From: a virus
Taxonomy: Duplodnaviria; Caudoviricetes
IMG/VR virus record: IMGVR_UViG_3300031993_000033
Coordinates: 40,705-104,704 of that record
Direction: 5' to 3' (one strand)
Length of the DNA stretch: 64,000 bases
Shown here: positions 121 through 35,128 of the stretch, in pieces
How positions within the stretch are numbered: position 1 is the first letter of the stretch
Layout of the letters: each line of letters opens with the position of its first letter
Position numbers and translations under genes: made by a program
The notes under the pieces: generated by a model
Seen by the model: only the letters and a program-made list of their open reading frames with translations
Database searches by the model: none
Told to the model about the DNA's origin: nothing

Positions 121-795
121 ATGATGTACACTAATATTTTAAAGTCTTTACAGGCTGAAAACACAAACCGCATAAACAACGCTATAAAGGCTATAAATGA
201 TAATAATATAGCTTTACAGCGTTACGCAACACAGGCAAGATGGAGCGCATACTTCAATCAGAATTTAAGCCGTGAAAAGTGTGTGGAATACACCACAAAC
301 CGCATAAAAAAGGAAGCTGAAAAGAGCTTAAAAGCTGATATAGCAAGCCTTGAAAAGTACGAAAACGCACCTACAATTGAAGCTATTCAGATTAATATTG
401 ATTGGAAGCGTTCAAGTGTATGGGGATATAATCCACACGTTACACTCCGCATATGGTATGAAGGTATATTTGACATTGAAGAATATACAGCAAAAGCAAG
501 CGGCTGTAATTACGACAAAAGATCACACGCTGTAGCAAGCGCACTGAATCAGTGTGCAGCTATAAAGGCTTTACTTTGTAACATGAAGGAAAAAGAAATT
601 GAAAACGGCACGGAAATAAAAAAGACTGTAAGCGGGCTTGACATAAATCCGCATTCTTCAGGCTATGGAGCTATACCCTTTGTTGATGGTTGCGGAATGT
701 CAGCAATTGAAAATTTACTGGACAAATGCGGCTTTAAACTTACAAAAGAGCACGGCACAAAAACGACTGATTATTATTGGTTTGACCGCAAATAA
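121..795 (+). CDS. hypothetical early phage protein
   Basis: 224-aa ORF with AAGGAGG RBS; stop codon overlaps a palindromic boundary site (792-809). Confidence 0.75.
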   Translation: MMYTNILKSLQAENTNRINNAIKAINDNNIALQRYATQARWSAYFNQNLSREKCVEYTTNRIKKEAEKSLKADIASLEKYENAPTIEAIQINIDWKRSSVWGYNPHVTLRIWYEGIFDIEEYTAKASGCNYDKRSHAVASALNQCAAIKALLCNMKEKEIENGTEIKKTVSGLDINPHSSGYGAIPFVDGCGMSAIENLLDKCGFKLTKEHGTKTTDYYWFDRK

Positions 796-902
796 AATTC
801 AAATTTCAATGCAGAGTGACGCGGGATTTTTCCCGCGGTAATGCAGCCGGAGGCGGTCACAAGCCCGCTGAATCTGTAAATATATCTTTTGGAGGTCATA
901 CT

Positions 903-1301
903 ATGAAAAAGTGTAAAATCAGATTGACGGACAACAGCAAAAAGTTAATTTCTATGCTGGAAATTGATGATGTAAAAGCTATGATTCAGGAATTGCAGAA
1001 TCAGGAGCTTGAAACAGATATTTTCAATCTCATTCCCGTTGCTATGGGATGTATTAAAAATTCAACATGGAGCTATTATGACGTAACAATGGAAATATGT
1101 AGAAATGCAAGAGTACCATATAATTACTACACGGAAAATAGTGCATACTATGATGTATGGGTAAATTTCAAGGCATTCAATGATTTTGACGGTTTTTATG
1201 TTGTTGGTATTTGCTTATCGGATATTTACAGCATATCAGAGGACAACAAACAGGAAATAAGACAGCATATGTATGTAAGAGAATACACGGAAAATAAATG
1301 A
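903..1301 (+). CDS. hypothetical protein
   Basis: ORF track starts at 816, but GGAGGT RBS precedes ATG at 903. Confidence 0.7.
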   Translation: MKKCKIRLTDNSKKLISMLEIDDVKAMIQELQNQELETDIFNLIPVAMGCIKNSTWSYYDVTMEICRNARVPYNYYTENSAYYDVWVNFKAFNDFDGFYVVGICLSDIYSISEDNKQEIRQHMYVREYTENK

Positions 1302-1669
1302 AATGGAGGTTTAAAGCTATGGCAAGACAGAAAATTACTATGGAAAAGCAAGTGAGAAATACGGTTATATATAACGATATTCTCAAGGCTATAGGTGGAA
1401 AAGCTAATGATACAATATCCATATACATTGACAGGAAATTTTACGCACATTATTCACGCTATTTAGGGAATGATGTATTTGACGATATTGCAGCACATAG
1501 CAACAAATCAGTTGATTTGATTGACGATCAGACAGGGGAAATTTTACGGCATAAAGCATAATAAAATCAAAGTTTTAACATTTAGGCGGCTATTTGAATA
1601 CGGAAATTTGAATAGCTGTCTATGTGCTAAAACACATAAATCTATTGGAAATTTAAAGGAGGCTATACT

Positions 1670-2014
1670 ATGAAATATCATAAGATACCAAAAATTGAAA
1701 AGTCGGTATGTACCGCGGAGCAGAAAATTGCATATAACTATGCATCCACATATGCGGATAGATACCGCGATACATGGAAAAAGACAGCGGATCAGTATTG
1801 TGAATTTCAGAAGTCAGAATTTATACATGAAGCTGTTGAATGGTGTATGAAGCTGATGCGGAATAATGCGGAAATTCAGCGGAAATATGACATTGACGCT
1901 ATATTTTGCGCGCTTAATGCTGGAATGCGGAATTACTTTGAAGCTAAATATAGTATACTGTCAAGCTATGAAGAAATAGGAAAAATGTTTCCTGCTAACT
2001 ATTTAAATGTATAA
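1670..2014 (+). CDS. hypothetical protein
   Basis: 114 aa, AAGGAGG RBS. Confidence 0.7.
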   Translation: MKYHKIPKIEKSVCTAEQKIAYNYASTYADRYRDTWKKTADQYCEFQKSEFIHEAVEWCMKLMRNNAEIQRKYDIDAIFCALNAGMRNYFEAKYSILSSYEEIGKMFPANYLNV

Positions 2015-2405
2015 AGGAGGTTTAATTATGAATAGACGTGAAATGTTAAACTGGATTAAATCAGAAATTTGTCCTAAACTTGACTTGAGTCAAGAGCTTG
2101 ACATAAAATGTATACTTGACGTTGTGGGAAAATTCCGCATAAATCAGCACTACAAAACAGATACACCAATGACCGCAGCCGTTAATGAATATGGTCATTT
2201 GTTTATCAATGGTATTCACGCCGGACAGATCACAAATAAAATACCTTTTGGAAATTTTGACGAGGAAGGTTATTTCTACGAAGGAAAAATATTAGCAAGA
2301 TCAGAAGTCGAATAAACCTATATACTATGGGCTTGACGGAAATTCAAGCCTATAAATATAAGCTTATTTACCACATAAAACACATATTCTAAAGGAGGAA
2401 AAATT

Positions 2406-2858
2406 ATGAAAACAATGTCAATCTTTTTGGCAATAGCTTTAACGTCAAGTCCTATGCCAGCGGAAAATTATTATTCCTCTACTTCTCCTGAAGTAGCAAC
2501 TGAGATTATAGAGCTTGTTATTAATGGAGAATATAGGGAATATTTAGACTTTAATGGTGACGGAAATTTAAACATTGCCGACGTTGTAGGCGTAAGCAAG
2601 CGTTATTCTGATAACTGTAAATACGGCAATGAGATAACATTAACAAGTGATACAGTGTACGATATTGCAACGGAAAATTATAGCGATGAGCTTATTTACT
2701 GGGAGATTGACCGCGTAAACGGAAATTTAACAAGACAGTACGAGCTTGTAGCAAGTGAGATTATGACAGCGGAAATTTACATGGAATTTGAAAACTATTC
2801 AGAATGTATTACTGTTGAAGTCAATCCCTTTACGGAGACAATAACAGTAATTGATTAA
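2406..2858 (+). CDS. secreted protein with dockerin-like Ca-binding loop
   Basis: N-terminal signal-like segment MKTMSIFLAIAL; motif DFNGDGNLNIADVV matches one dockerin repeat. Confidence 0.6.
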   Translation: MKTMSIFLAIALTSSPMPAENYYSSTSPEVATEIIELVINGEYREYLDFNGDGNLNIADVVGVSKRYSDNCKYGNEITLTSDTVYDIATENYSDELIYWEIDRVNGNLTRQYELVASEIMTAEIYMEFENYSECITVEVNPFTETITVID

Positions 2859-3036
2859 GGAGGCGTGATTATGTATTGCACATTTAATGGAAAAATCTGC
2901 TTAATGATGTGGGATATACAAGCGGAAAAATACGTTTATATTCCTGAGTCAGTGTGGTATAGCTTTACAGAAAAAGCAAGATCACGCTATACAGAAGAAC
3001 GCACAAATTAAATGATTATAATATATCGGAAAGTTG

Positions 3037-3065: not shown

Positions 3066-3147
3066 ATAATCACAGGGAAAATCCCTGAATAGTTATACCC
3101 TAACAAGTAAACAAATGAAAAGTGTATTTTAACAGGAGGTCACGATT

Positions 3148-3729: not shown

Positions 3730-5656
3730 ATGAATGAACAGGCTATTATTGACAAGGTAAACAAGATCGTTTCGGAAATTCGCAAAGAATATACCGAGTA
3801 CAAAGGACAGTATTATTTACTTACTCATGTTATCAATCTTGAATTTCTTATGGGCAAATACTTTGCACTCATGGAAATTTTACTGAATAACATCGGAGAA
3901 AATCCGCTGAATCCTTTTGACAATGCGTATTGCACAGAGTACGAAAAGAATAAGGCTTTTATTGAAGCCGTTACAACACATATTGACGGTATGTATAAGA
4001 AGCTGAAGGAGGTTTAATTATGGCAAATCAGATATTTGCAACACTTGACAAGTCGGAAAAATGGCTGGATAAACAGCGTGAAATTGACGGATATTCAGTT
4101 GACGGATTTACAGTTATTCCTTGCTTTAGAGGAAAATCAGTTGAGATCACATTCTTTAGGTTTGTAAAGCCTTTAGGATATGAGAACAAATGCAGCTATG
4201 AGATACCGACGGAAATTCGATCACAGTGCTATATGAAAATCATTAGCAAGTTAAAGAGATGCAGTTTTGTTGACGGAAAAGTTATCATATCAATAAGCGG
4301 TCAGAAATACTGCATAGGAACGTACACAACGGAAATTTAAGGAGGAAGGAAAAATGAAATACTATGAAATTGAATTTGCTCATAGAGCAGAAATTGAGGA
4401 TGAGAGCTTTATCGGTACACCCGATAGATATAGTATCTGTATCTTAGCGGAAAGAGAGCCTTCATATGAAGAAGCGGAAATTTTCTGCAAAGAGGATATG
4501 AACAATTTAGGTTATGACATGGTAAGTGATGTGTTGGAAATTAGCAAGGAAGAAGCCTACAATTTCTTTGATATGGAAAATGCAGACAACTTTCCGATAT
4601 TCAAGTAAATAAAATGACTGTTTAAACGTGAGCCGAAGCGGTCAGAAATGACCGTTTCCACATACGCTTAAACGGAAAATCAAAACAGCCGAAAGGCAAG
4701 GAGGTCAATATGTTAGTATTCAATTTCAATCATACGGAAAAGCAGCTTGAATTAGCTTGCAATGAGTTTTCGGAAATTCAGCTTGTAGCGGACAATGAAG
4801 TATGCAAGGGCTGGGATATGCGACTCGGACACAGTGAGTTGAATATCACAAAGTATGGAGACTTCTACCGTGTAGGTGACTGCTACAATGGAAAAATCCT
4901 GAGATCATTCAAGTGTAGTTTTGACGGAAATATGATAACAATTTATTCCGCTAATGACAACGGCAGAGAGCTTAAAGCGGAAAAATATTTAAAGAAATAT
5001 GCACAGTGTGCAATGAGAGTATTTGCTCTTGTACAGTGTGGAAAAATTAATTGAGGAGGTTTAATCATGTACGAATGCAATATCACTATAAAGCAGCCAA
5101 CAGGGAAAGTCTCACAGAATAGAATAATGTCAAGGTTTGAGACAACACCTGAAATGATAGCGAGATCGGAAATGTGCTGGTATAGCACAGGAACAATAAT
5201 TGAAGTCAATGGAAAAGCCTTTAGGAAAATTCATGTTGATGATGCCGTTAAAGGCTATGCAGAGTTAGAGGAGGTTTAATTATGGGATATGAGAGCAGAA
5301 TAATTGTAGCAAAAAGGACTGTGTGGGAAGGATCAGGTCTTGTATGGTTTGAGAAGCTATCGGAAATGTGGTTAAGCAAAGTCGGTTATAACTTCCCTGA
5401 AATCTTCACTACGGAAATTGAATCCAATATCTATGGTGACGGTTTCAAGGAAAATTCAGAAGAAGAATATGAGCTGACCGAGGACAGATACGGAGACATC
5501 TGCAAGTACACAGACATACAGACGGTCATTGACTGGCTGGAAAATGCAGAAGCAAAAAAGCATTACAGAAGGTTTACTCCTGCTATTGCAATGCTAAAGG
5601 CATATGCAGCGGAGAAATGGGAAGGCGATATAGTGGTGATCCACTATGGATATTAA
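3730..5656 (+). CDS. run of six small hypothetical ORFs (3730-4017, 4020-4340, 4354-4608, 4710-5054, 5067-5279, 5282-5656)
   Basis: closely packed, each with a GGAGG-type RBS; no recognisable domain. Confidence 0.65.
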
Positions 5657-5662: not shown

Positions 5663-5854
5663 TTGATTATGAACTTAGACGAAGCTATCAAATTAGTATT
5701 AAAAGGTAAAGCTATTAGAGCTAAAGAATGGGAAGAAGGTATGTACTTTAAGATTCGATGGCGTATGTTTGAGACTGAGGGCAGCGTAAGAAGTAAACTT
5801 TGGAAATGGAAGGATTCAGAGTTTGAAGAAGTGCTGTTTGATTATACCGAATAA
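5663..5854 (+). CDS. small protein with DUF2829/Tad2-like N-terminus
   Basis: MNLDEAIKLVLKGKAIRAKEW resembles the DUF2829 N-terminal motif; the protein is short. Confidence 0.35.
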   Translation: MIMNLDEAIKLVLKGKAIRAKEWEEGMYFKIRWRMFETEGSVRSKLWKWKDSEFEEVLFDYTE

Positions 5855-5889
5855 AATAACACTTTCATTTAGCAGAGAGGAGTTTTAAT

Positions 5890-10931: not shown

Positions 10932-13900
10932 TGTATCAGCAAGTCAAGGAACTCCGAGCCTGTATAGATAAAATGTACGATGCTGCTATGAGGCAGGACG
11001 ATGAGCGTAGAAAAGAGATTGAAACGCTCAAAGCCTATCTTAGTTTTGCGTTGAGTGCATTTGAAAGCATTAGGAGTTGTAAGTATGCTCCATGTGGATT
11101 TTGCAAGCATCGCAACGAAGATGACACTCCGTTTTGTGGTGAAGGTCATAAATGGGAATGGGAATACGCAGAAGAAGTCAAGAAGTTATTGGCTGAATAA
11201 AAGGAGTGATAATATGATTGACGGATTTACGATGTATTATAACAGTGGTGAACGGTGTGAAAACAGCAAGACGAAGTACGAAGAACTATGTGAGCAAATG
11301 AGAATTTTACAAAATAACTTAGATTCCGAAGATGCACATGGCAAAGCAGATGATATTCTGTGTGAAGCTCTTAAAATGTTTGGCTGTAATGAACTTGTTG
11401 AGCTTTATGAACAAATTGAAAAATGGTATTCATGATAAAAGGAGGATTTAAAATGGGTTATGAGCATGAAGAAAAATATATCGAAAAAGTAAAAGAAATA
11501 CAGAGTATGCAAGATGCTGAAAAGTATAGATTATATATGCAATGGTGTAATGAATGTCCGAAAGCTCATGACTTTACCTGTTCAGGAGCAGATGCTAAAA
11601 AATGTGAACAAGAAAAGCAAAAGTTACTGGCTAAATGAAAGGGGAGTTTTATTATGAGTGACTACTGCCACAAAAAAGTCATAAGAATGAAAATATCAGA
11701 AGAAGAAGCCTGTGAGATATTTGGTGTTGATGACGGTTGGGGTATATCAGACTTGCTTGAGAAAACAGAGTTTGAAATCGCTCCTACATCCGATTTCTTT
11801 ATTGACTATGTTCTATTTTCCAGAAATGATGCTGAAGGTGATTGGGGCAGAACAAGACGGTTAGGCAATGCTGAGTATTTAAAGTATGGTAGCAAGTTTA
11901 GAAAACTTCTTAAACGCAGAATCGTTATGCCTAATGAACTAAGACTTGTCGAATACTGTTGGTATGATTGCAGCGAAGCCCCAGATTATTTTGACGAGCC
12001 GACTGATCACGATGACTTTTACGATGAGGTGTAAACTATGAAACGAGTTTGTCCTTATGATGAGATCACGCCTATGAGTCTTACGGGTTGTCACCAGTGT
12101 GGTTTTAGACTGATTTGCTCGGAATACGAAAAGGCTCTTAGATATATGTACAGTTATATTCGTATGGGCAACTCAGCAAGGATATGTGGTAAACGGATAA
12201 TGGCAGAAGATTTGAGAGACATTTATAGAAATAAGTTAGAAATGATTAGTAATAGCTTTTGGCGATGGACTTCTAATGAAGAATTGCTGAAAGATATTGC
12301 CGTACATGAGGTGAGATATTTATGAGAGTAAATGTTAAAAACTATATGTATAGATGGTTTGATGATATGTTGATTTTGCAGACCGAGGATGACAACGTTC
12401 TCTATATTTATTGCCCAAGTGAGTGCATATATAATGATGGGATTTCACGTTATTATTGTTACAAAGAAAATCTTCAAGCAAGAGAGTTGTTGGAAATTGA
12501 TTATGTAGATTATCATACGGAATCAGACTCAGATATTTCTTGTGACGGAATTGCTCACTTTATTCAGTATAGGAATAATAAGAAAATCATTATGCGTGGA
12601 TATAGATGTTGTAAACATAGAAAACTTCCAGATGATATTCTTAATAAAGCTGGTGGATATTGGTATCACCGAAATGATAATGAAACAGTTGAAAATGATA
12701 AAAAGAAGCGTCAGTGGTCAGATTTTATATCTGTTATAAGTGATGCAATAAAATGAAAGTCTTGTTTTATTAAGGAGGTTTATTGTGGATTACGACACGA
12801 TTTACAATGGCACAACAATAGATGGTGTTAAAGCCATTACAGATGCTTTAGAACTATCAGCATATGAACATAAAAAATTAGAAAGGCATCAGAAACTAAG
12901 TCAGCTTGCAGATGAAGATGTAGCTTATACAATCAGAAAGAACGTCAATTATTTATGGGTTGATTATTACTTTGATGATGCAAAAGAATGGCTTGATATA
13001 AGAACTCAAAAATACGATAAGCGTAAAAAGTATAAGGAAAAAGATGCGTATGAATACCTTGTAAATGAAATCAAAGAAATTTTTCAAGTTGATACTTGCG
13101 AGATAATTAGAATGTGCTATGAAGGATATGAACAGTATTCCAGATGGATAGAATTTACAACCGATAGTGATTATATATTTCATATGACTATCCCAGTTGT
13201 GAAAAGAATCACGCCTAAACTTATGTCTTATGTTTATTATGGCAAGGTTACAATTGGATATTATGTAGGCGAAAATTATAGAAGAATATGTGGGGCTTCT
13301 TATAATACAACAGAATTAAAACCAATTATGGATGAAATTCTAACATCTGAAGAATACAAAAAGCATTTGTCAAAGATGAAAGAATAATTTTATCGGTAAA
13401 ATAACGACGTAGAATAGCCAAAAAGTGGCTCTAAAAATTACATGAAATTTCACTTTTATGAGGAGGATGAAGATGAGTGAACTCACATTGGACGAAGCCA
13501 TAAAGCATTGCCTTGAAGTGGCGGAGCAGAATGAAATAGATTCAATAACGTACAAGAACTGCAAAGAAATCAAGACCAATATGTATGAAAAGCTACTCGC
13601 AGAAAAAGTGGAGAATGACTGCTTAGAGTGTGCCGCAGACCATAGACAGCTTGCAGAGTGGCTTAATGAGCTTAAAGAAGCAAGAAAGCTATTGACCGCC
13701 ACAAAGTACAGGGTGAAGCATGAAGAATGGGATATGCACGGAGAGCATTACATAGGCGATTATGCGTTATGTCCTAACTGCAATAAATGTTTTACAAATA
13801 TCTATAACGGCAAAGCAGCTCCAGTTGTTACATTCTGCCCTGACTGCGGTCAGAAGATAGACTGGAATGAATAAAACGTGTCTTAGACGGCAAAGACGAA

Positions 13901-16656
13901 TTTGAAACAAAGGAGAAATGAAAATGGCTGAAAGTTGGAATGATATATTTGGTGGACAATTTGCCAAACCAGATGTTAAACATGATAAACTAATTGCAAA
14001 AGCAGTTGAGTGTTACACCGAAAAGCTTGAAGAAGAAAATAAGGTGTTGAAAGATATTATAAGGCAGATAGATGATGCTTTTATGTCCTTTAACGGTAAG
14101 AGCAAGTCTACTGATGATATAATTAATGAGATTATTGATATTCTGAAAGTTTATAGAGATGCGTTTAGGGAGGAAGCACCATGAAAGAGTACTTAGAGCT
14201 TGAAAGGGTGCTTGATGATAGTCATATCATCACAGTACAAACAAGGGACTATGGCAGTTTAGAGGTTGTGCCTGTTGAATACCTTGCAAATTTACCAACC
14301 GTAGAACTACAAACCATAAAAGATGTAGTTGTACCAAAACTTGAAAAACATAACATAAAACGTGGTTATCCTGATATGACCGAGGGAGAAGTAGCTGCTT
14401 ATATATTAGGATTCAACGAGCATGAGAAGCTTAATATGGGGCATTGCTATATTGATAATGAGGGGTACGAAAGATGTTCTGTATGTAATGAGCATGAAAC
14501 AGGTATGAGATATGCCTCATTCTGCCCGAGATGCGGCGTCAAGCTGAAACACTGAAACAAGGAGAACTAACAATGACGCTTGAACAAACTATAAACGATT
14601 GTGAAAGACTTGCAGATCAGCAAGAAGCAATAATTAAAAATATTAAAAATAATTTGGCGGGTACTCCAATTAAAGAGTATATAGATGAGTGTTCTGAGTG
14701 TTCTGCTTATTCTAGGCAGATTGCAGAATGGCTTACGGAACTTAAAGAGTGGAAGGCAAATCCGTTTAGCCTGATTAAAACAGAGTGCAAAAATAATTAC
14801 TACTGTAATAAGTGTGCTTTTCTCGACCATTGTCCATTTTCAAACGGGAACAGAGTTGCGGCAGAACACCCGATGGACTGGGTTGTATATTAAAGTTGCA
14901 TTTTATTGGAGGTGAACAATGAATGACCAATGATAAACTTGATAAGGCTATTGCTACAAGAAAGAAAATGTCAGAGTACGATGATATAATTAAAATGCTC
15001 AATGACAATCAGTACGACCATTTTAACATACATGGAGTGTGTAGCGATGGTGTGAGCGACTACATAGACCTTTTGCCTGATGATTGTTTAAAGGCTGTAA
15101 AACAATGGTATATAGACGAGTGGATAAAGTTAAAGGAAGAATTTGAAAAGATATGAAAGCTACATTTTATCGGAGGTGAACCATGAGAGACATAAACAGA
15201 CTTGATAAGTTCTACGACGAGCTTAAAGAGATACATAAGAAGAACTTTCCTGATTGGCGTTTCGGTCAGATGATAGTCAATGTGTTGGCTGATTGGCAAG
15301 CTAAGACCAAGAGAGATATTTTCTTTCCCGAAGAAGATGAGATGATACAGATATTCAGGGATTATGTAAACAAAACTTGAAACCTACGTTTTATTGGAGG
15401 TGAACACATGAGTAATCTTGAACATCTAATTGAGAATACGCTGGTAGCTATGGAAGATAATACGTTGTGCTACGAAGATATTTGTAAGCGCATTAAGAAC
15501 GATGTTAACTTTCCCTACACTTCATTGTCAGCAGATGATGTGTTAGAGATATGCACATATTTTCTGTATACATGGTGTGGAACTTGCGAAAAGTGCAATA
15601 GGAGATGATAAGAGATGACAATTAATATTCAAGAACTGCTTGACAAAGGCTATAAAGAGTTCCCACCAACAAGGTTTGATACTGCGGATAAATGCTTTCA
15701 GAAGCGGTTTACGACAGAGAATGGTGATACGCTGTATTTTATCAACGTTAATATGTATTACTCTTGGGGTTCAGTTCCAGAGAATTTTGAAGTTGAAACG
15801 CAGCTCTATCAGAAAGGAACGCATGAGCCTGTAAATCTGAAGTTCTTCTGTGATTGGACTTTGGCAGATGTCGAGGATTATGTGCAACGAATTTACGAAG
15901 TGGGGTTTGAGCCGTATGAAGAATCGTGATTGGTTAAACAATATGGCACTTATTGATATGCTAAATATAATTAACGAGCGATTTGATGGATGTTTTGTTT
16001 ATAGAATGGAAGAACAAGATTTTAATTCCATAGACGGGCGTTGTGAGAAATATAATTGGGACTGTTACAAATGCATCGCAGCGTGGTTAAACGAGGAGAA
16101 TTAATATGACCACATATGAATTATTCAGAACACAAGACAGAGGATTTTTTGAGCCTGTAAATATGATTGATGTCAAGGAAGTCATTGCCAACAATCCTAA
16201 CGGAATGTGCCTGTGGGTTCAAACGCCCGATTACTATATGGAAGTTGACTGCCCTGATAGGTATAACATGAACGCAAGGTTTGATGTTGAGGGCAAGATG
16301 TTGGTCAACAAGCTGTTTCCTTATAGCTTTACAGGCTTCATGGACGCTTGCAATTGGTTTGATGAGCAAAGAGCTACTTACCGCTTCGCTGAACTTATAG
16401 GGAGGAAGAAACCGTGGACATCAGACAGCAGATAGTCGAGCTTTGCAAGGAGCGCATAGCCGCCGCTAAAGACAAAAAGGAACTGCGGTTGTACCTATAT
16501 GATATAATCGCGGCTCTTAATGGCGGCGAGAGAAATCCGCTGAAGATAACCAATAAGGCAGTCGCAGAGAATATCCTGTACACTATCCGGCAGTATGGGA
16601 CTGAGGAACAGGCGAGGAAAGCGACTGAGATAAACAATGTTTGGCAAAATCTGTGA
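10931..16656 (+). CDS. array of about 18 small accessory hypothetical ORFs, several Cys-rich or Zn-ribbon
   Basis: tightly packed ORFs with RBSs; CxxC pairs in 13458-13874, 14181-14555, 14573-14893; many bounded by palindromic sites. Confidence 0.6.
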
Positions 16657-16693: not shown

Positions 16694-17416
16694 ATGTCAG
16701 AAACAAAGAAGAAGTCGGTGTTTGAAACGCTGGCGAGCATCGACACAACAAATGATGTGGTGTCTAAGGGCGACGGTAAGTATTCTGTTACTTATGTTCC
16801 GTGGGCGCGTTCAATCGAAAAACTGCGTATGTATTATCCTGATGCCATTATTGAGGAGTGTACTTTTAAGACTCAGAAGTTAGTCTCGGTGCTTGCCTCT
16901 AAAACAGCAGAAGGGGAGACATACCATAGTGAGCTTGTCGAGGTTGAACTTCCCTACGGCACAGACGGTAATACCTGTTGGGTTAAGACCTGCGTTAAGA
17001 TACCGTCACAGGGCATTGAGGAATACTGCACCCTGCCTATAATGGACAACCGCAATCAGGCTGTTCCTGCGGCAAACGTAAAGAGCACAGACGTAAACAA
17101 GGCTCTCAGGCGTTGCGTGGCAAAGAATATAGCGTACCTCGGATATGGCTTATCATCATGGTTAAAGGATGACTACACTGATCTTGCAAAGGATAAGAAG
17201 GTGTTGGACGGACTTGACAGACAGGACGCTATTGGCAAGTTTAAGGCTAAGATTAAGGACGGCTATGACCGCGATAAGCTGGCTGCTTGGTTACAGGCAA
17301 ACTTTGGCGGTTGCAAGAACCCGATGAATCTGAGCGATGAGCTTCTTGAAAGGCTTAACGAGGAGCTTGACAAACTGGACATTAAGGACTTTCAGTCCGA
17401 GAAGAAATCTAAGTAA
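16694..17416 (+). CDS. Sak-like single-strand annealing protein (DUF1071/Rad52-like)
   Basis: YVPWA, LPIMDNRN, DVNKALRRCVAKNIA..G.GL motifs; upstream of SSB. Confidence 0.8.
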   Translation: MSETKKKSVFETLASIDTTNDVVSKGDGKYSVTYVPWARSIEKLRMYYPDAIIEECTFKTQKLVSVLASKTAEGETYHSELVEVELPYGTDGNTCWVKTCVKIPSQGIEEYCTLPIMDNRNQAVPAANVKSTDVNKALRRCVAKNIAYLGYGLSSWLKDDYTDLAKDKKVLDGLDRQDAIGKFKAKIKDGYDRDKLAAWLQANFGGCKNPMNLSDELLERLNEELDKLDIKDFQSEKKSK

Positions 17417-17891: not shown

Positions 17892-18629
17892 GTGGACTTA
17901 ACTAAAAAAGAGTGGTCGTATAGCTCTCTCAAACTCTACGAGACTTGTCCGTGGGCGTTCTATCTGAAATATGTTGAGGATATAACTGAGGGCGATAATG
18001 CCTTTGCACAACACGGTTCACTGGCTCACAGCATTTTAGAACGCTGGGCGAAGGGTGAGCTTTACGAGTTTGAGCTTGCGGACACATTTGAACAAGAATA
18101 TGATATGTGGGTGACTGAGAAGTTCCCATATTTTAATATGTATAAGGCTTTCTACGACAAGACTCTTGCATACTTCCAGAATTTTGACGGCATTGCCGGT
18201 GAGATAATCGGGGTAGAGCAAGAGCTGAAAGCTGTGATAGGTGGGCATAAGTTTATCGGATTTGCGGACTTAATAGTGCGTGACGAGAACGGAATTGTGC
18301 TCATAGATTACAAGTCGCACGGTGCTTGGAAGTCCAAGAAGGAACGTGCCGACTATATGCGCCAGCTTTATCTGTACGCTTACCGCATAAAGGAAATGTA
18401 CGGCGAGTTTCCGTATAAGTTAGTATTCAATAAGTTCCGGTGCGATGAGCCGTGGGACGAGGAGCTGTTCAAAGAGGGCGACTACACGGCGGCGATAGAC
18501 TGGTTCAAGGTTGGCGTTGATACAATACTGGCTACGACTGACTGGGAGTGCAAGGTTGATAAGTTTTACTGTGAGAGCCTTTGCAGACTGAATTGCGTTT
18601 ATAGTGGGGTGGATGAAGATGATAGATAA
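17892..18629 (+). CDS. PD-(D/E)XK exonuclease (Cas4/RecB-like)
   Basis: SYS...CP, G...H..LE, GFADL, IDYKS, QL.LY, C-terminal Cys cluster. Confidence 0.85.
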   Translation: MDLTKKEWSYSSLKLYETCPWAFYLKYVEDITEGDNAFAQHGSLAHSILERWAKGELYEFELADTFEQEYDMWVTEKFPYFNMYKAFYDKTLAYFQNFDGIAGEIIGVEQELKAVIGGHKFIGFADLIVRDENGIVLIDYKSHGAWKSKKERADYMRQLYLYAYRIKEMYGEFPYKLVFNKFRCDEPWDEELFKEGDYTAAIDWFKVGVDTILATTDWECKVDKFYCESLCRLNCVYSGVDEDDR

Positions 18630-25140: not shown

Positions 25141-25445
25141 TAGTCTTAATATTTTCAATTCTCGGCAGCGTATTCAGCTTGGGCGGTAATGTACTTATCG
25201 CCCATAAGAAACGCTCTGGCTGGTGGATATGGATATTAGGGAACATAGCGTGGTTGGGAGTAAACTTTCTCGGCACTATGAATATTCCTATGGTAGTAAT
25301 GTATATATTCTATCTTATCACAAATATTGCAGGGTATATTGAATGGGGTAGGAAGTCCGATCTACACAAAGCCATTGATGAATGCAACGAGAAATTAAAG
25401 AATAAACCTAAGTTTGACTTTTCTGATGTAAAGACAAGACATTAA
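25137..25445 (+). CDS. PnuC-like small membrane protein
   Basis: three hydrophobic helices, KKRSGWWIWILGN motif. Confidence 0.55.
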   Translation: MIVLIFSILGSVFSLGGNVLIAHKKRSGWWIWILGNIAWLGVNFLGTMNIPMVVMYIFYLITNIAGYIEWGRKSDLHKAIDECNEKLKNKPKFDFSDVKTRH

Positions 25446-25654
25446 AGTTTGATTTTATTCGACTTGTAAGGCGTTATCTCAATGCTTAAATCGTCTGCCA
25501 CCTTGTATTTATACAGCTTGTGAAGTTCACCATCGGCTGTAAATCCGCAGACGAAGTGGTTTTCAAGCCAATACTTGCCTTCCTCTATCAGCAGAGGATA
25601 ACCTAAATCGCTCCACATTTGAATCATCTCTTTGAAGATGGGTTGCATTATCAT
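25442..25654 (-). CDS. inverted 5' part of the PAPS-reductase-family gene
   Basis: own GAAAGGAG RBS; ends NKIKL inside the inverted repeat; joins the 25789 ORF in frame if inverted. Confidence 0.75.
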   Translation of the reverse strand: MIMQPIFKEMIQMWSDLGYPLLIEEGKYWLENHFVCGFTADGELHKLYKYKVADDLSIEITPYKSNKIKL

Positions 25655-25714
25655 TCTCCTTTCACTGGGAAATGCCTATTCTACGTTGCTAAATTGGCAA
25701 TAAAATCAAACTTT
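25444..25714. repeat. 16-bp perfect inverted repeat bounding an invertible segment
   Basis: AAAGTTTGATTTTATT (25444-25459) and AATAAAATCAAACTTT (25699-25714). Confidence 0.9.
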
Positions 25715-26781: not shown

Positions 26782-26849
26782 ATTTACAAGACAACAAATT
26801 AGCGGTAATGATTAACCAAATAAAAGTTGAGTTTTAAGGAGGAATAATA

Positions 26850-27986: not shown

Positions 27987-28492
27987 AAGACGAATTTCAA
28001 ACAGTTAGGAGGAAATGAAAATGGCTGAATATCATGTTGGTATAGGCTTTGCGGGTACTATATACGCTGGAACACTCACCAAGGATAAAAAGCGTTGGAT
28101 AAATAAATCTGATGTTACCGATGAAGTTGTTGCCGCTTTTTATGCATGGTTGCAAGAGCAGTATGAAGAAGCCGCAGAAGAAACAGAACTTGAAAGTGGT
28201 CAGAGCTTAGAGAGAACTATTAGTTATCCTAACTCAGAATATGAGATAGTTTTTAGGAAGAAAAGGGACGGTGAACAGAATGACTGATGAAGAAACAAAA
28301 CTAATGGAGAGCATAGTTGATAAGCTGATAGCGGATAAGAAAGACCGCTCAGCACACAGTTATAACGACTATACCGATGATTCGGAAAGGCTAATAATAT
28401 TAACTATTGCAGAAATCAGATTTTTGTATAGCCATTTTACCGATGAAGATATTGACGAGTATTGAACGAATGAAACGTGTCTTTTATGTGAG

Positions 28493-28708
28493 GTGAAAAA
28501 GATGAGAGATATGTGGTATATAGGTTCTCCACCGCCTGAACGTGAACATTATCTTGTTACAGATGACAGTGGCGAAATACAAATTGGGTATTGGACTAAT
28601 TATTCTCCTATTCTCGGAGATGAGTCTGATGTATATCGTTGGGTAGGATTAAAACAATATACTCACGTTGTAGCATGGCGTTTCCTTCCAGAACCATACA
28701 AAACTTGA
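28493..28708 (+). CDS. DUF551-like small protein
   Basis: YLVT...VVAWRFLPEPY. Confidence 0.55.
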   Translation: MKKMRDMWYIGSPPPEREHYLVTDDSGEIQIGYWTNYSPILGDESDVYRWVGLKQYTHVVAWRFLPEPYKT

Positions 28709-28745
28709 AATATGCCTTTTATTAGATTAGAGAGGAGAGATTAAA

Positions 28746-29291
28746 ATGCCTTTAAATGTTGGGTATTTAACTTGTGACCGCACGGCGGCAGGAGATGAAG
28801 TATACACTCCCTACTATGCGGTTGATCCTCTGCTTGAGTTTATCCCAAAAGATAAGACGATTTGGTGTCCGTTTGACGAGGAATGGTCGGCGTTCTACCA
28901 GACATTCAAGCGGGGGGGGTATGACGTAGTTAGAAGTTCTCTTGCTGAAGGTCAAGACTTCTTCAATTATGAACCTGAGAAGTGGGACATAATGATAAGC
29001 AATCCGCCTTTTAGTAAAAAGGACGATGTGTTGCAGAGAGCTTTTGAACTCGGTAAACCTTTTGCAATCCTTCTGCCTTGCAATAGTATACAGGGCAAGA
29101 AGCGGTTTAAAATATTTCAAAACGAGATTCAGATGTTGTGCTTTGATGCAAGAATAGATTATCACACTAATGGCAATATGACTACATACACTAAGGGCAA
29201 CCACTTTGGATCGGCATATTTTTGCAGAGACTTCCTTCCGAGCAAATTGGAGATGCGAGAGCTGCACAAATATGAAAAATCACTAACGTAA
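28746..29291 (+). CDS. DNA adenine methyltransferase (NPPF type)
   Basis: DEVYTP, IWCPFD, GQDFF, SNPPFS; in-frame G8 tract at 28912-28919. Confidence 0.8.
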   Translation: MPLNVGYLTCDRTAAGDEVYTPYYAVDPLLEFIPKDKTIWCPFDEEWSAFYQTFKRGGYDVVRSSLAEGQDFFNYEPEKWDIMISNPPFSKKDDVLQRAFELGKPFAILLPCNSIQGKKRFKIFQNEIQMLCFDARIDYHTNGNMTTYTKGNHFGSAYFCRDFLPSKLEMRELHKYEKSLT

Positions 29292-29354
29292 AATAGCCAA
29301 AAACAGGCTATAAAAACTGGATAAAATAAATCTTTTATGCGAAAGGAAGATGTA

Positions 29355-30092: not shown

Positions 30093-30179
30093 ATTTGCCT
30101 ATTCTACGTAGGTCAAAACTGAATAAAACGGTTCTTTTATGTGATTGCAAAATAATAAATTAGTGATAAGGAGAGAAAA

Positions 30180-31043: not shown

Positions 31044-31129
31044 TAGCCGAAAAGTGGCTCTATTTATCCAATAAAACTTTACTTTTATTGACTGACAGAG
31101 TAACAAATTAGAAACAAGGAGGAATTTAA

Positions 31130-32095
31130 TTGAAGTTGACAATGATTGAATTATTTTCTGGCATAGGTGCTCAGATCAGAGGATTTAAAAACTCTGGTTT
31201 ATTTGACACTGAGGTAATAGCAACATCAGAGATTGACAAAGATGCAATCGTGAGCTACGCTGCCGTTCACTGTGGACTTACACCAGAACTTATTGAGAAC
31301 TATGATTATCCGCCCGTAGATGAAATGGTGGAGTACCTTGAAAGTCGTAACATTGGCTATGTCTTTGAGAAGAACAAGGCTTATGACTGGCAGAAGAAAC
31401 GCAACAGTGCAGACTTAAAGAAGTATTATCTGGCATCAGTTCTTTCTAAGAATATGGGAGACATATCAAAGATAGAAGAATTGCCTTATGCAGACTTTGT
31501 AACATACTCGTTCCCATGCACCGACATCAGCATCGCTGGTCAGATTCAGGGCATTGAACGTGGTAAGACACGAAGCGGTTTGCTTTATGAAGTAGAACGC
31601 TTACTCGCAAAGGCTAAAGAGACAGACACTCTGCCGAAGTTCTTACTTCTTGAAAATGTAAAGAATCTTGTATCACAGAGATTTAAGCCACAGTTTAATG
31701 AGTGGTGCGATTATCTCAGTGAGATTGGTTATAACACTTATTGGCAGATAGTCAATGCAAAGGATTGTGGCATACCTCAGAACCGGGAACGCGTATTTGC
31801 TGTAAGTATACGCAAGGATGTAGACACTGGTAAGTTTGAGTTTCCACAGGCATTTGATACGGGCATACGTTTATTCCATGTTCTTGACTTTGATGTGAAT
31901 GAGAAGTATATTCTCACATCTGATGCTGCTGGTAAGGCACTTGATGAGATGGCTAATAACGGCACACTCTCAGAGGAAGAAGAACTATGGAATGAGCTGT
32001 ATGAGACACGCAATGACTTCCCTAATTACGGCATTATTTGCAATCAGCCTATCTATACATCTAACGATGTCACTATAGGGGGGCAGTTCCGATGA
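31130..32095 (+). CDS. C5 methyltransferase large subunit (motifs I-VIII)
   Basis: LFSGIG, SFPCTD, ENV, PQNRER; lacks motifs IX-X; ends just after a G6 tract. Confidence 0.9.
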   Translation: MKLTMIELFSGIGAQIRGFKNSGLFDTEVIATSEIDKDAIVSYAAVHCGLTPELIENYDYPPVDEMVEYLESRNIGYVFEKNKAYDWQKKRNSADLKKYYLASVLSKNMGDISKIEELPYADFVTYSFPCTDISIAGQIQGIERGKTRSGLLYEVERLLAKAKETDTLPKFLLLENVKNLVSQRFKPQFNEWCDYLSEIGYNTYWQIVNAKDCGIPQNRERVFAVSIRKDVDTGKFEFPQAFDTGIRLFHVLDFDVNEKYILTSDAAGKALDEMANNGTLSEEEELWNELYETRNDFPNYGIICNQPIYTSNDVTIGGQFR

Positions 32096-32191
32096 ATGAC
32101 CAGAACGGATATTGTCGCACACTTAAACAGCAGTATGCTAAAACAGCTATTCAGAATTTAAAGGCACATTTGGTGCAACAGGAGTAGTTCA

Positions 32192-32335
32192 ATGGAAATA
32201 AAATATGTGGGACGAGTCCTTCCCTCTACTGGTAAGCAACATCAAAATCAAGAAGTAGCCAGTGGGGGGGGTGCAATGTGGTCACTCAAATCAACAGACT
32301 ACAAAGGAGTTCCGAAAGTGTTGGTGAAAAAATGA
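32192..32335 (+). CDS. TRD mini-gene 1 (G8, in frame)
   Basis: MEIKYVGRVLPSTGKQHQNQEVASGGGAMWSLKSTDYKGVPKVLVKK. Confidence 0.65.
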   Translation: MEIKYVGRVLPSTGKQHQNQEVASGGGAMWSLKSTDYKGVPKVLVKK

Positions 32336-32521
32336 ACGTAAAACTGCTAATGACAATGCCTAATATGTATGAACATAATGGGCGGTTGTATTCCGTAGGG
32401 GGGTATGTGTACTCTATCCACGAGAGAACACAAAGATCCCTGTAAGATACTAATAAGAAAGGTAAGTAAAGATGAAAAATCAGATAAGAGTGGCGGTGGC
32501 ATTGCCAACCAATTACAGTGA
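32332..32521 (+). pseudogene. TRD mini-gene 2 (G6, out of frame)
   Basis: MNVKLL...RLYSVGG; G5 or G8 restores MCTLSTREHKDPCKILI. Confidence 0.6.
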
Positions 32522-32637
32522 GCAAGGCATTGTCGTAAGCGGGGGGGGGTATTTCTAAGACAATACTTTCCAGAGATTACAAAGATGCCAAGAAGATATT
32601 GATAAAGAGGGTTAAGAAATGCCAGACAAATACATAA
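32472..32637 (+). pseudogene. TRD mini-gene 3 (G9, out of frame)
   Basis: MKNQIRVAV...VSGGG; G8 restores ISKTILSRDYKDAKKILI. Confidence 0.65.
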
Positions 32638-32792
32638 CCATAGGGGGGGTGGACATGACTGTGAATAAACCTTGCCCTATGCAGTATGCAAGTTGTATTT
32701 TAACAAGATATGACAACGGAGTTAGCAATCAACAGAAAGCAAGAACTGGGGTGCTTCTAAAGAAAGTCAGAAAGGAAGATAAAAATGAGTGA
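32619..32792 (+). CDS. TRD mini-gene 4 (G7, in frame)
   Basis: MPDKYITIGGVDM...ASCILTRYDNGVSNQQKARTGVLL. Confidence 0.6.
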   Translation: MPDKYITIGGVDMTVNKPCPMQYASCILTRYDNGVSNQQKARTGVLLKKVRKEDKNE

Positions 32793-33277
32793 TGTGCACG
32801 ATCTCTTATCTCCCGATGAAAGTAAAGATTACATAAGGGTAAAACAAGCTACGAAGCAAGGATATATCCTTTGTGAGAATGGTGGAGTGGCTGACCTATC
32901 CTATCCAAATTCAAAGCTGCGTCGTGGCAGAGTTCAGAGGGGGGGGGCAAACCTGCCCTACTCTCACCGCAGGTAATTGCAATATATACAGAATTGAAAG
33001 GAATGATAGTATGAACGTTGAAGATTGGGCTATCCGCAAATTAACTCCTACCGAATGTTGGAGACTGATGGGTTTTACTAATGAAGATGTAGAAAAGTGC
33101 AAGGCGGTAGGTATGAGTGATACTCAGCTCTACCGACAGGCTGGCAACAGCATCGTAACAAACTGCATTGAACTGTTAGCAGAACACCTTTATAAAGCAC
33201 AGTATGATAATGACTATGAGTGTTATGACGAGAAGTTCTCCAATGTAGACAGACAGCTTGAATTTTCTTTTCAGTAA
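32785..33277 (+). CDS. TRD 5 plus C5 MTase small subunit (motifs IX-X), split by a G9 frameshift; small subunit has its own RBS and ATG at 33011
   Basis: KQATKQGY...SKLRRGRVQRGG then QTCPTLTAG; IRKLTPTECWRLMGF, QAGNSIV. Confidence 0.8.
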
Positions 33278-33291
33278 CCCCTTTCACTTCC

Positions 33292-33450
33292 TTGCCAAAA
33301 CTGGTGGGGGGGGTAGGAGAGAAGAATTATGGCACTCAATACCATCAGCAGCATAGAATATATAGTGGCTGTTGTGTAGGTATGTGTCATTGTTCAAATA
33401 TCAGTGGAGGTAGTTATCACTACGCCTTTAAGGAGATAAAAAGTGAATGA
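33292..33450 (+). CDS. TRD mini-gene 6 (G8, in frame; start uncertain)
   Basis: PKLVGGVGEKNYGTQYHQQHRIYS...GGSYHYAF; TTG start with no clear RBS. Confidence 0.5.
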   Translation: MPKLVGGVGEKNYGTQYHQQHRIYSGCCVGMCHCSNISGGSYHYAFKEIKSE

Positions 33451-33634
33451 ATTAAAACAAATAGCCGAACTCAAAATTCCACAGTGGACGGAGTGTCGGC
33501 GCAGAATATACACTACGGGGGGGGTATCTCCCACATTGAATGGCATAGGCAGAGGTGGCAACACTGAGCCTAAAATGCTTATAAGGAGCAAACATGAAGA
33601 ACGAGATAAAAGTGATAGTAAATCTGCCGATTAA
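33443..33634 (+). CDS. TRD mini-gene 7 (G8, in frame)
   Basis: AAGGAG RBS; RRIYTTGGVSPTLNGIGRGGNTEPK. Confidence 0.7.
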   Translation: MNELKQIAELKIPQWTECRRRIYTTGGVSPTLNGIGRGGNTEPKMLIRSKHEERDKSDSKSAD

Positions 33635-33752
33635 AGGCATGGATGTTATCAAGCGTTGTTACAGTGGGGGGGGTATTTCTCCTTCACTCACTACAATGCA
33701 AGGTGGGCAGCGAGAACCCAAAATTTTACAACGTAGAATAGCCAAAAAGTAG
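33594..33752 (+). CDS. TRD mini-gene 8 (G8, in frame)
   Basis: AAGGAG RBS; KRCYSGGGISPSLTTMQGGQREPKIL. Confidence 0.7.
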   Translation: MKNEIKVIVNLPIKGMDVIKRCYSGGGISPSLTTMQGGQREPKILQRRIAKK

Positions 33753-33788
33753 CCCTAAAAAAGCAATAAAAGATTCGTTTTAAGTGAG

Positions 33789-34697
33789 GTGAGTAATGTG
33801 ATTTTCTTTCGAGAACGAGAAGATTACAACAAGGTTATCTCTGTTAAATTGGTGATTCCTTGTGGCTGTAATGCGAAGTGCCCGTTCTGCTACAACAAAG
33901 ATAAGCCTGTAGTACAATATGATATAAAAGGTTTTTTAGATAACTTTATCCCGTCTTTAGAACATCTCTTAAATGAAATAGGAGACAAGAATCCAGTATC
34001 TCTTGATATTACAGGTGGTGAGCCTACACTTGATGTCGATTTGTTATCACTTGTATTGATTAAGCTAAGAGAGTTCCACATAAAGGATAAAGTGTTGAGA
34101 GTTACTATGACAACTAATGGCACTAACCTTTATCAGATACCGATTGAGTTAATGAGAGATGTTGTGGATTATGTAAACATCTCAGTTCACGATTATAGAC
34201 AAGCAGAGCGAGAGAACATAATGCAAATTCATACGCCAGCTTTAGCCTATAAAAGAATTATCTCTCGATTAAACTCTGTTGGTATTACTGTATCGGCGGT
34301 AGCTGTTATTTTTCGTCCGATTGAAAACTTTAATCGGTGGCGAGATAATTTTATCAATTGGGCGCAGCAACAAGGTTTTATTTCAGTAAGGTTTAGATGC
34401 GATGTATTTTGGCGTTATAAAGGTTATTTCACCAACTATATGTTTGATAGCAAAAAGGAAGATCAATTTGATATTATCAATTACGAGCATACATCTGATT
34501 CATGGTGGTGCAGATTAAGACGTAAAGACAGAATGAGAGTGTTCTTTCTGCAAGGAGTAGCAGATACCACGAAGTATACCAAAGGCATTGAATATGTCAT
34601 TCACGATGACGGCAAATGTTATTGTGATTTTTACAAGAGAACGCCTATTGACAAATATGAATATGAGATAGGTAAAATTTATGATGCGATTAATTGA
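33789..34697 (+). CDS. radical SAM protein
   Basis: CNAKCPFC, ITGGEP, TTNG. Confidence 0.85.
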   Translation: MSNVIFFREREDYNKVISVKLVIPCGCNAKCPFCYNKDKPVVQYDIKGFLDNFIPSLEHLLNEIGDKNPVSLDITGGEPTLDVDLLSLVLIKLREFHIKDKVLRVTMTTNGTNLYQIPIELMRDVVDYVNISVHDYRQAERENIMQIHTPALAYKRIISRLNSVGITVSAVAVIFRPIENFNRWRDNFINWAQQQGFISVRFRCDVFWRYKGYFTNYMFDSKKEDQFDIINYEHTSDSWWCRLRRKDRMRVFFLQGVADTTKYTKGIEYVIHDDGKCYCDFYKRTPIDKYEYEIGKIYDAIN

Positions 34698-34725
34698 TTA
34701 AACCTGTGTTTTATGAGGTGAAATA

Positions 34726-35100
34726 ATGAAAGATTTTTATGAAAGAGAAATCCAAGTGGGAGATATATGTGCTTTTTGGGACGGCGATCATCTTGATAGT
34801 AGACGAATTTGGGGATATGAAGGCGACTCTGTTGAGATTTCAGACTATCACAAGACTTTAATTAAGAAAGCTAAAGAAGTTATAGACATTACTGCTATCG
34901 AGAGACAGATACACTCAGAGACTTTTATCAATTCTGTAAAGACTCTTGATGTAAAACCTGATAGTACAGTGGTGGCGTCAATTATACCTAATCAAATATC
35001 TTACACGGAAGCAACCAAAATGTTTGATGGTTTAAAGGCAATGTTTCCAAACAATGAGGTATCAATGGTTATGGGAGTTGATGTTACGGTTGAAAATTAA
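34726..35100 (+). CDS. hypothetical protein (YopX-like N-terminal motif)
   Basis: KDFYEREIQVGD; flanked by boundary sites. Confidence 0.5.
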   Translation: MKDFYEREIQVGDICAFWDGDHLDSRRIWGYEGDSVEISDYHKTLIKKAKEVIDITAIERQIHSETFINSVKTLDVKPDSTVVASIIPNQISYTEATKMFDGLKAMFPNNEVSMVMGVDVTVEN

Positions 35101-35128
35101 ATTCTGCTTTTATGTGAAAGGAGACTGA

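Follow-up and report, generated by a model that had tools for sequence, protein, structure and literature searches.

Junction-specific 18-bp palindromes at accessory gene boundaries of a large phage genome as probable recombination joints

The question why phage mosaicism falls exactly at gene boundaries has stood open since Botstein's linker model. The explanation commonly given is either that illegitimate events, though rare, are sifted by selection or that conserved stretches allow homologous exchange. The question is raised again by a 64,000-nt stretch of DNA (the window: bases 40705–104704 of IMGVR_UViG_3300031993_000033, a 104,704-bp virus record with terminal repeats whose genome is here called W, or G000), in which an 18-bp palindromic element recurs at the junctions of accessory genes. 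A sequence-only reading of the window had counted about 25 such 6-6-6 sites at accessory gene boundaries between positions 792 and 35113, and had proposed an integron-like architecture with cassettes swapped between phages. Are these elements the joints at which related phages exchange genes and, if so, by what process? Our analysis indicates that the 18-bp sites are probably recombination joints, with a probability of about 0.8.

Anatomy and distribution of the 18-bp element

In the window, 35 stretches fit the consensus WTDAAA-N6-TTTHAW. Dinucleotide shuffles gave an expectation of 1.05 and never more than 5, so the element stands well above the AT-rich background. The whole 104.7-kb genome has 37 matches, 28 of them at 792–35113, and 25 of these 28 are gene-junction sites, in agreement with the earlier count; the three examples that had been quoted (12753, 30123 and 34697) are exact. 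The remaining three lie at a start codon (3148) or within genes (24679 and 27085), and the seven matches past 35113 are inside genes or not assigned to a junction. Only the 6-bp spacing is enriched (37 matches vs ~2), with N3–N5 and N7–N10 giving 0–4 matches vs ~2, and the half-site hexamers alone show no enrichment, as expected for a site bound by a dimer.

The element is directional relative to the genes. A stop codon is present in every left-arm variant, and at 17 junctions the stop of the upstream gene lies in the left arm or a few bases from it (A-TGA-AA, A-TAA-AA or AT-TAA-A). The right arm ends 0–41 nt, mostly 11–16 nt, before the next start codon, with GGAGG directly after the arm. The six-base centres are all different in W, save for an inverted partner copy at 25699–25714, and no site occurs in the replication module (15394–24679). 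Stop-codon overlap, the closeness of the next ribosome-binding site, the diversity of the spacers and the empty replication module had all been noted from the letters alone, and each held on recounting. The site at 11435–11452 has no counterpart in relatives and is a weaker member of the set. No Rfam family covers the junction sites, and no other palindromic junction motif rose above shuffle level in 36 more distant relatives.

One match inside a gene deserves separate mention. The site at 24679, within the reading frame 24316–25140, has a GGAGG and ATG of its own, the left arm supplying the start codon. Homologues of this frame elsewhere match it only past the site (e.g. 96% identity over 55% of the length), which suggests that its N-terminal part was swapped at 24679.

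Sites compared between related genomes

No GenBank phage gave a nucleotide match to the window, and its relatives were found among metagenome contigs, of gut origin by their record names. The polymerases of L026–L029 are 88–90% identical to that of W. A composite motif, described below, led to the IMG/VR records G001 (99 kb, complete), G002 and G003, and a second recombinase, Int2, led to G014 (106 kb, complete) and G013 (these five are G1, G2, G3, G14 and G13 in Table 1). All of them carry the 18-bp element at gene junctions, and the cross-genome comparison of sites covered eight related phage genomes or fragments.

Pairs of sites with identical centres numbered 93 between genomes, against 1.15 expected by chance; 17 centres were found in at least three genomes, and their order is collinear in W, G001, G014 and L028. 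Classified by homology in the 120 nt on either side, 52 of the 93 pairs shared neither flank, 19 only the right, 10 only the left and 12 both, and the proteins flanking same-centre sites were unrelated too. Gene content thus changes at the sites, which is what the sequence-only reading had suggested looking for in an alignment of related phages. In the 52 pairs with both flanks replaced, the median length of the identical tract is 16 nt and the shortest such tract measures 12 nt, and per-column identity is at background immediately beyond the 18 bp. Such tracts would be shorter than assembler k-mers, making chimeric assembly an unlikely cause. The joints become visible as a defined site, with an apparent protein-binding format common to all and a 6-bp junction label, kept across core genes whose nucleotide identity is only 66–85% (W vs G001).

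The arms tend to follow their own flank, indicating that breakpoints lie between them: the right arm is identical in 16 of 19 right-only pairs and the left arm in nine of these, and among the 10 left-only pairs the left arm is identical in eight and the right in six. High-identity blocks end 0–2 nt from a site at 11654, 15380, 24680, 25444, 28000, 28481, 28724, 29339 and 35096. Overall, 14 of 136 block ends fall within 12 nt of a site (3.7 expected, a 3.8-fold excess), and block ends are 1.8 times as numerous at junctions that have a site as at those that have none. Genes and sites also assort independently, the same gene having a site in one genome and none, or a site with another centre, in a second.

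One segment has been inverted between sites. The region has a single − strand gene, and on either side of it the site at 25441 and the copy at 25699–25714 match as a 16-bp inverted repeat without mismatch. The segment so delimited holds the 5' part of a PAPS-reductase-like gene (70 codons) with its ribosome-binding site and a promoter-like element. W and G001 share one orientation and G002 (95% identical) and L028 the other, with the inverted repeats kept in both; a 46-nt inverted match in L026 has the orientation of G002. The gene is whole in G002 and L028 (425–432 aa) and split in the state of W and G001. Its remainder in W (25789–26781, 330 aa) has no ribosome-binding site of its own, and the flipped 70-codon head keeps its promoter-like element, now directed at the upstream gene. 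Shufflons and other invertible-segment systems flip DNA between inverted copies of a site within a locus; here a single inversion between inverted copies was seen, with both states present among relatives, and the other sites cannot pair within the genome because their centres all differ. Same-centre copies in direct orientation also occur. The agtgta 18-mer is found twice in L082 (186 and 3073) and twice in G014 (1.44 kb apart), flanking segments of 1.4–2.9 kb, which is the product expected from insertion of a circle with one site. The same address is present in L085, whose homologue of Int1, the recombinase encoded in the window, is only 42% identical.

The element is not confined to this clade. 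The pattern occurs 38 times in SPBc2 (SPbeta) and its reversed control 5 times; there too the stop codon lies in the left arm. The kinship of SPbeta with W is remote (DNA polymerase 25% identical). Seventeen centres are common to SPbeta and phi3T and follow the same order in both, and at seven of them one or both flanks have been replaced. In phi3T (L103; 83281–84650), nip (phi3T_120) and phi3T_121 stand between the addresses gatagt and tattta, where SPbeta has yoqT alone. The nip gene, immediately left of one such site in phi3T, is a counter-defence gene against SpbK and encodes an NADase inhibitor (PMC11984713). Papers on phi3T–SPbeta hybrids do not describe the breakpoints.

A second repeated motif accompanies some of the sites. 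Each of its four + strand copies (13408, 29287, 31037 and 33732) starts exactly 34 nt before a junction site, and in its hexamer TA[GAT]AAT only the third base varies, as in a −10 box. Inverted pairs of the motif flank a methyltransferase module (29337–30092) and a radical-SAM/methyltransferase module (33789–35875), and it is also present in L026, L028, L029, G002 and G014. Second motif, site and ribosome-binding site together make up a 75-bp composite common to different contexts.

Table 1. Coordinates of the junction sites and other features. Positions are those of the window unless marked; in the remarks, ranges are genes and G and L numbers are related genomes or fragments.
Feature	Position	Strand	Remarks
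Site, centre ttcaaa	792..809	+	Stop of 121–795; twister ribozyme follows; same centre G14
Site, centre tggagg	1298..1315	+	Stop of 903–1301; next start 1319; same centre G1, G14
Site, centre tcaaag	1561..1578	+	Stop of 1319–1561; same centre G1, G14
Site, centre agtgta	3115..3132	+	15 nt before start 3148; same 18-mer G1, G14 (x2), L082 (x2), L085; flanks unrelated
Site, centre tgactg	4609..4626	+	After stop of 4354–4608; same centre G1
Site, centre taacac	5851..5868	+	Stop of 5669–5854; same centre G1, G14
Int1, divergent tyrosine recombinase, 333 aa	7896..8897	+	phrog_216 integrase, E 3e-13
Site, centre ggagga (also ribosome-binding site)	11435..11452	+	Stop of 11085–11435; next start 11453
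Site, centre ggggag	11635..11652	+	Stop of 11453–11638; G1 homology block starts 2 nt past site
Site, centre gtcttg	12753..12770	+	Stop of 12322–12756; same centre G1, flanks unrelated
Site, centre gaataa	13376..13393	+	Stop of 12785–13387 in centre; 14 nt before second motif; same centre G14, L028, flanks unrelated
Second motif CGTA[GAT]AATAG[CG]C plus hairpin AGCCAaaaagTGGCT	13408..13441	+	Repeated element
Second motif, further copies	Starts 29287, 31037, 33732	+	Repeated element
Second motif, further copies	Starts 25685, 30108, 35899	−	Repeated element
Site, centre tttcac	13442..13459	+	34 nt after second motif; 13 nt before start 13473; same centre G1, L028, flanks unrelated
Site, centre gttgca	14889..14906	+	Stop of 14573–14893; same centre G1, G14, L028, all flanks unrelated
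Site, centre gctaca	15153..15170	+	Stop of 14923–15156; same centre G1, G2, G14; four different left arms
Site, centre cctacg	15377..15394	+	Stop of 15183–15380; L028 and G2 homology begins inside left arm at 15380
Sak-like single-strand annealing protein	16694..17416	+	phrog_659, E 9e-26
Exonuclease, presumed partner of the Sak-like protein	17892..18629	+	phrog_69, E 1e-25
Site, centre gtttga, left end of inverted segment	25441..25458	+	Stop of 25137–25445; 16-bp perfect inverted repeat with 25699–25714
271-bp segment inverted between close relatives	25444..25714		Opposite orientations in relatives, repeats retained
Inverted partner copy, centre tcaaac, right end of inverted segment	25699..25714	−	Pairs with 25441
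Site, centre gttgag	26820..26837	+	12 nt before start 26850; same centre G1 (orthologous), L028 (flanks unrelated)
Site, centre gacgaa	27983..28000	+	Stop of 26850–27986; 3.3-kb, 91% G1 block ends exactly at 28000
Site, centre cgtgtc	28470..28487	+	L029: same downstream gene preceded by centre gaaaac
Site, centre tatgcc	28705..28722	+	Stop of 28502–28708; L029: left flank homologous, right not
Site, centre taaatc	29321..29338	+	34 nt after second motif; G1 block ends at 29339
Site, centre cggttc	30123..30140	+	Same centre G1, L028, L029; six of six pairs unrelated on both flanks
Site, centre ctttac	31071..31088	+	34 nt after second motif; same centre G14, L029
Site, centre gattcg	33766..33783	+	34 nt after second motif; same centre G1, G14, G13
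Site, centre cctgtg	34697..34714	+	Stop of 33798–34697; same centre G1, flanks unrelated
Site, centre ttctgc	35096..35113	+	Stop of 34726–35100; same centre G3, L029
Int2, Xer-like recombinase, 342 aa	Genome 22663–23691 (17 kb outside window)	−	PF00589, E 1e-18

Candidate enzymes and a model of exchange

The genome encodes no serine recombinase, and its tyrosine recombinases Int1 and Int2 were considered as enzymes for the sites. Int1, which the sequence-only reading had placed at 7893–8897 and singled out as the protein to assay on the sites, is a genuine tyrosine recombinase: 17 of the 33 members of its family match PF00589, the residues R97, H249-x-x-R252, H288 and Y297 are conserved, and its top fold matches are all tyrosine recombinases (Tn1549 Int, IntI, XerH and Cre). 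Its profile has no match in SPbeta, and none by sequence in the PDB. As the enzyme acting on the sites it was down-weighted, because the family is present in motif-free phages. Eight IMG/VR loci with homologues 42–55% identical have 0–3 sites against 0.3–1.3 expected, with no motif above control in the four complete genomes among them, and the motif-rich G001 and G002 have a version only 36% identical though their arms are the same.

Int2 starts at M51 of a frame first read as 392–395 aa, as judged from its relatives (MEGRSTVYNK..., with a good ribosome-binding site). Residues R175, K213, H277-x-x-R280, W303 and Y312 are invariant across eight homologues, down to 32% identity. The best sequence match in the PDB is XerH (weak, E 1e-4), and the best fold matches are XerA, XerH and IntI (model pLDDT 67). 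Two motif-rich genomes, G001 and G014, and two fragments, G013 and G015, encode an Int2 that is 89–90% identical, and the motif-rich SPbeta has a homologue, yomM (31% identical). Five genomes lacking the motif have no Int2. The presence of Int2 thus appears to track the motif better than that of Int1, a suggestive pattern, and we infer that Int2 is the most likely enzyme, with Int1 as second candidate.

We consider it an evenly balanced proposition that the joints arise by conservative site-specific exchange, in register, between co-infecting relatives and through a phage Xer-like recombinase. This process is favoured by the strict dimer-type geometry, the junction-specific centres, the 16-nt islands of identity, the inversion and the presence of an Xer-like enzyme; its conservative chemistry, the need for a matching centre and the identity of the enzyme are what we infer from these. 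The 18-bp element would then be a duplex site resembling the core of Xer or Cre sites, with a 6-bp central region between inverted arms of 5–6 bp ((A)T[GA]AAA and TTT[TC]A(T)). As the arms are common to all junctions, one protein dimer could bind every site, and the junction-specific central region would act as an address. In a mixed infection, strand exchange would be completed only between the same junction of two related genomes, so that a single crossover would yield an in-register hybrid, with one phage to the left of the junction and the other to its right. With the stop codon in the left arm and the right arm before the ribosome-binding site, each exchange would leave genes intact, and repeated exchange could reassort ~25 accessory cassettes (methyltransferases, a radical-SAM gene and small unknowns) on a fixed scaffold. 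Same-centre copies in inverted orientation would produce inversion, as at 25444–25714.

Several observations weigh against this process. Some exchanges appear to have ignored the address: gene 28502–28708 stands behind centre cgtgtc in W and gaaaac in L029, gene 28015–28287 is at different addresses in W and G001, and a methyltransferase module in G003 has a different centre within otherwise homologous DNA. Not all breakpoints are at sites, the homology with L027 stopping 39 nt before 25441. The conserved arms measure 5–6 bp, vs the 11–13 bp bound by Xer or Cre, with nothing conserved outside them. The same arms are found in phages as distant as SPbeta, which would also suit a host factor or a general linker format. 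Int2 homologues 33% identical are encoded by genomes with only 3–5-fold motif enrichment (G004–G006), and the link between Int2 and the motif comes from few genomes, mostly of one clade, and is confounded by shared descent. Of the cassette swapping originally proposed, breakpoints at sites and an inversion were found. The accompanying proposal, that the spacer decides which partner a site recombines with, agrees with centres being conserved junction by junction and in collinear order; the exchanges that appear to have ignored the centre run counter to strict addressing.

Among known systems, the closest likeness is with XerH and difH of Helicobacter and Campylobacter (5JK0, 5JJV). There, a single Xer-type recombinase acts on inverted arms around a 6-bp central region; difH of Helicobacter reads TGAAAA-6 bp-TTTTCA and no longer recombines when the G or the A run is mutated (PMC3325230). 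Int2 has the catalytic R-K-H-R-H/W-Y set, and the phage arms T[GA]AAA/TTT[TC]A share the core TGAAA/TTTCA with difH, but are one A:T pair shorter. The distance from G to C is 13 bp in the phage and 15 bp in difH, a difference in geometry that also counts against the proposed exchange. In addition, difH occurs once per chromosome and resolves dimers with FtsK, whereas the phage genomes carry 25–38 sites with different centres at gene junctions, so the one-site-per-replicon arrangement of Xer/dif does not apply to a genome with ~25 junction sites.

The dif modules of Acinetobacter plasmids offer another likeness, with accessory modules bounded by multiple Xer-type sites, each with a 6-bp centre between its arms, and shuffled into different combinations in related replicons (PMC6449649, PMC13141974). 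Those pdif sites are 28-bp XerC/XerD sites that alternate in orientation and are served by host enzymes, and their modules are thought to move between plasmids. By comparison, the phage sites have 18 bp and near-symmetric arms, a candidate enzyme that is phage-encoded, and junction-specific centres in a fixed map order.

The label 'integron-like' did not stand. Integrons share with this region co-oriented accessory genes, recombination-site-like elements overlapping gene ends and an encoded tyrosine recombinase, and both Int1 and Int2 have IntI (2a3v) among their top fold matches. Integron attC sites, however, are imperfect inverted repeats of 57–141 nt that form single-strand hairpins recognised by structure, any of which recombines with attI. 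The phage has no attI/Pc platform and no interchangeable flanking sites; its sites are short duplex palindromes with address-like centres, apparently exchanged in register between genomes. In an integron, intI stands beside attI and Pc at the head of the array. In the phage, the Int1 gene is within the array and has a promoter of its own, that of Int2 is 17 kb away from the window, and no common attI-like site was seen.

Competing explanations and the surrounding region

The alternative that survives best, although we consider it unlikely, is that the sites are conserved 'stop plus start' linkers crossed by short-homology recombination with no site-specific enzyme, through a Sak-type protein and exonuclease or host RecA, as in Botstein's linker model or the PeSL cassettes of T4-type phages. 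The genome does encode a Sak-like (Rad52-type) annealing protein and an exonuclease, which could use short homologies and count against exchange by an Xer-like recombinase. Some exchanges, ignoring the centre, were apparently crossed in the right arm and ribosome-binding site, and the 75-bp composite recurring in different contexts also speaks for this view. PeSL-mediated shuffling is an established precedent (PMC2839356, PMC4122927): PeSLs, too, are short intergenic repeats in hyperplastic regions, at the ends of indels or replacements between relatives. They consist of sigma-70 promoters and terminator hairpins, are all alike and recombine by homology, whereas the phage sites are 18 bp long, have junction-specific centres and are neither promoters nor stable hairpins. 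Scanning of 24000–38000 gave sigma-70-like promoters and terminators at shuffle level, with none at sites. The sole perfect promoter in that interval (24216–24244, + strand; TTGACA, 17 nt, TATAAT, with TG) is away from any site and heads the accessory block starting at 24316. The tracts in replaced-flank pairs also fall well below what RecA or Red-type systems use efficiently. Crossovers in 16 nt at nearly every site would have to compete with kilobases of 80–90% identical core genes, and linkers give no reason for shared palindromic arms at a strict 6-bp spacing.

More doubtful is the view that the palindrome is mainly regulatory, an operator or roadblock for a dimeric regulator, possibly of recombinase fold, or a translational operator, with swapping a by-product or only apparent; the sequence-only reading, too, had raised regulator operators as an alternative. 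The stereotyped position relative to the ribosome-binding site agrees with this, and so does the promoter-like context: three sites stand where the −35 box of a −10-like TAGAAT would be (TTTTAT-N16-TAGAAT), and four are found 34 nt beyond such a hexamer. MrpR (YopR) of SPbeta is a precedent, a repressor with the tyrosine-recombinase fold that has lost the catalytic residues and binds a repeated intergenic element, SPBRE, at ~ten promoter regions (PMC10516654). Int1 and Int2, in contrast, keep their catalytic residues. The SPbeta palindromes are at junctions other than the ten MrpR ChAP-seq targets, bar two possible overlaps (PMC10516654), a comparison made by gene positions because the SPBRE sequence is not printed in the papers. 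At the RNA level, the arms never paired in the minimum-energy structures of eight junctions, with z-scores of −1.3 to +1.0, none significant. The relatives L030 and L031 (polymerase 80% identical to that of W) have several of the accessory genes packed without the motif, which is thus not needed for their expression. Regulation also leaves unexplained both the inversion and the ordered, junction-specific centres with both flanks replaced.

We regard as very improbable a homodimeric endonuclease that cuts inside the 6-bp centre to leave junction-specific sticky ends, religated between co-infecting genomes as in BstXI or SfiI cloning. Palindromic arms, a fixed N6 and matching centres would fit it, and several HNH endonucleases are encoded, but neither such an enzyme nor a ligase was identified in this analysis, a phage that cut its own DNA at 25 positions would put itself at risk, and the encoded tyrosine recombinases already supply the chemistry. 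Finally, a functionless by-product of AT-rich composition, arising where a stop codon with its A run precedes a T run and the ribosome-binding site, suggested by the stop in every left arm and the abutting ribosome-binding site, is hardly credible given a ~30-fold enrichment at one spacing only, identical centres across genomes 80-fold above chance, and relatives with the same gene packing but no motif.

If a recombinase does act on the sites, as in the exchange between co-infecting relatives set out above, they would form a dedicated phage device for in-register swaps of anti-defence cargo, here methyltransferases and a radical-SAM enzyme. A broader and more tentative idea, to which we give somewhat less than an even chance, is that large Firmicute phages (a rumen/gut clade and, independently, SPbeta-like phages) run a programmed, addressable recombination, in which an Xer-like recombinase and 25–40 heterospecific sites serve in-register cassette exchange, including that of counter-defence genes. 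A contiguous double-stranded DNA genome would then in effect become a reassorting, segmented one. The same motif and architecture in SPbeta and phi3T make the idea directly testable in Bacillus subtilis, where these two phages are amenable to genetics. Being heterospecific by nature, such sites could also be put to use as tools for exchanging several cassettes in a set order.

As for the surrounding genes, those on the + strand up to ~47.7 kb include small early genes, the Int1 gene, two tRNAs, the Sak-type annealing protein and exonuclease, a primase-helicase and a DnaE-type polymerase (21092–24211). These are followed by a methyltransferase block, PAPS-reductase-like, pentapeptide-repeat, radical-SAM and TnpB genes, and an anaerobic ribonucleotide reductase; after 47.8 kb, − strand genes include tail and other late genes. 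The strong GGAGG ribosome-binding sites suggest a Firmicute host.

The pentapeptide gene (26850–27986; DUF7666 plus pentapeptide repeats) contains ~30 tandem 15-nt coding repeats (27160–27600), which also cause many staggered BLAST hits against G001. A candidate second palindrome, ATTAC-N7-GTAAT, was rejected because it corresponds to this coding repeat.

The TnpB-type gene (35931–37136, + strand; OrfB_IS605 and Cas12f-like TNB domain) is inserted between a methyltransferase gene and gene 37171. Immediately upstream of it the second motif occurs on the − strand, and immediately downstream there is a degenerate site (ATAGAA gaaaca TTTAAT). L029 has an intact site at this position, without TnpB.

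In the early region, a full-length type-P5 twister self-cleaving ribozyme (810–868, + strand; Rfam RF02684, 64 bits, E 5e-11) comes directly after the site at 792–809 and before gene 903–1301. The two tRNA genes (9508–9579 and 9811–9893, + strand; Rfam RF00005, 61 and 57 bits) are followed by 27-nt and 19-nt inverted repeats, clustered at 9982–10084 just 3' of the tRNAs and before gene 10117.

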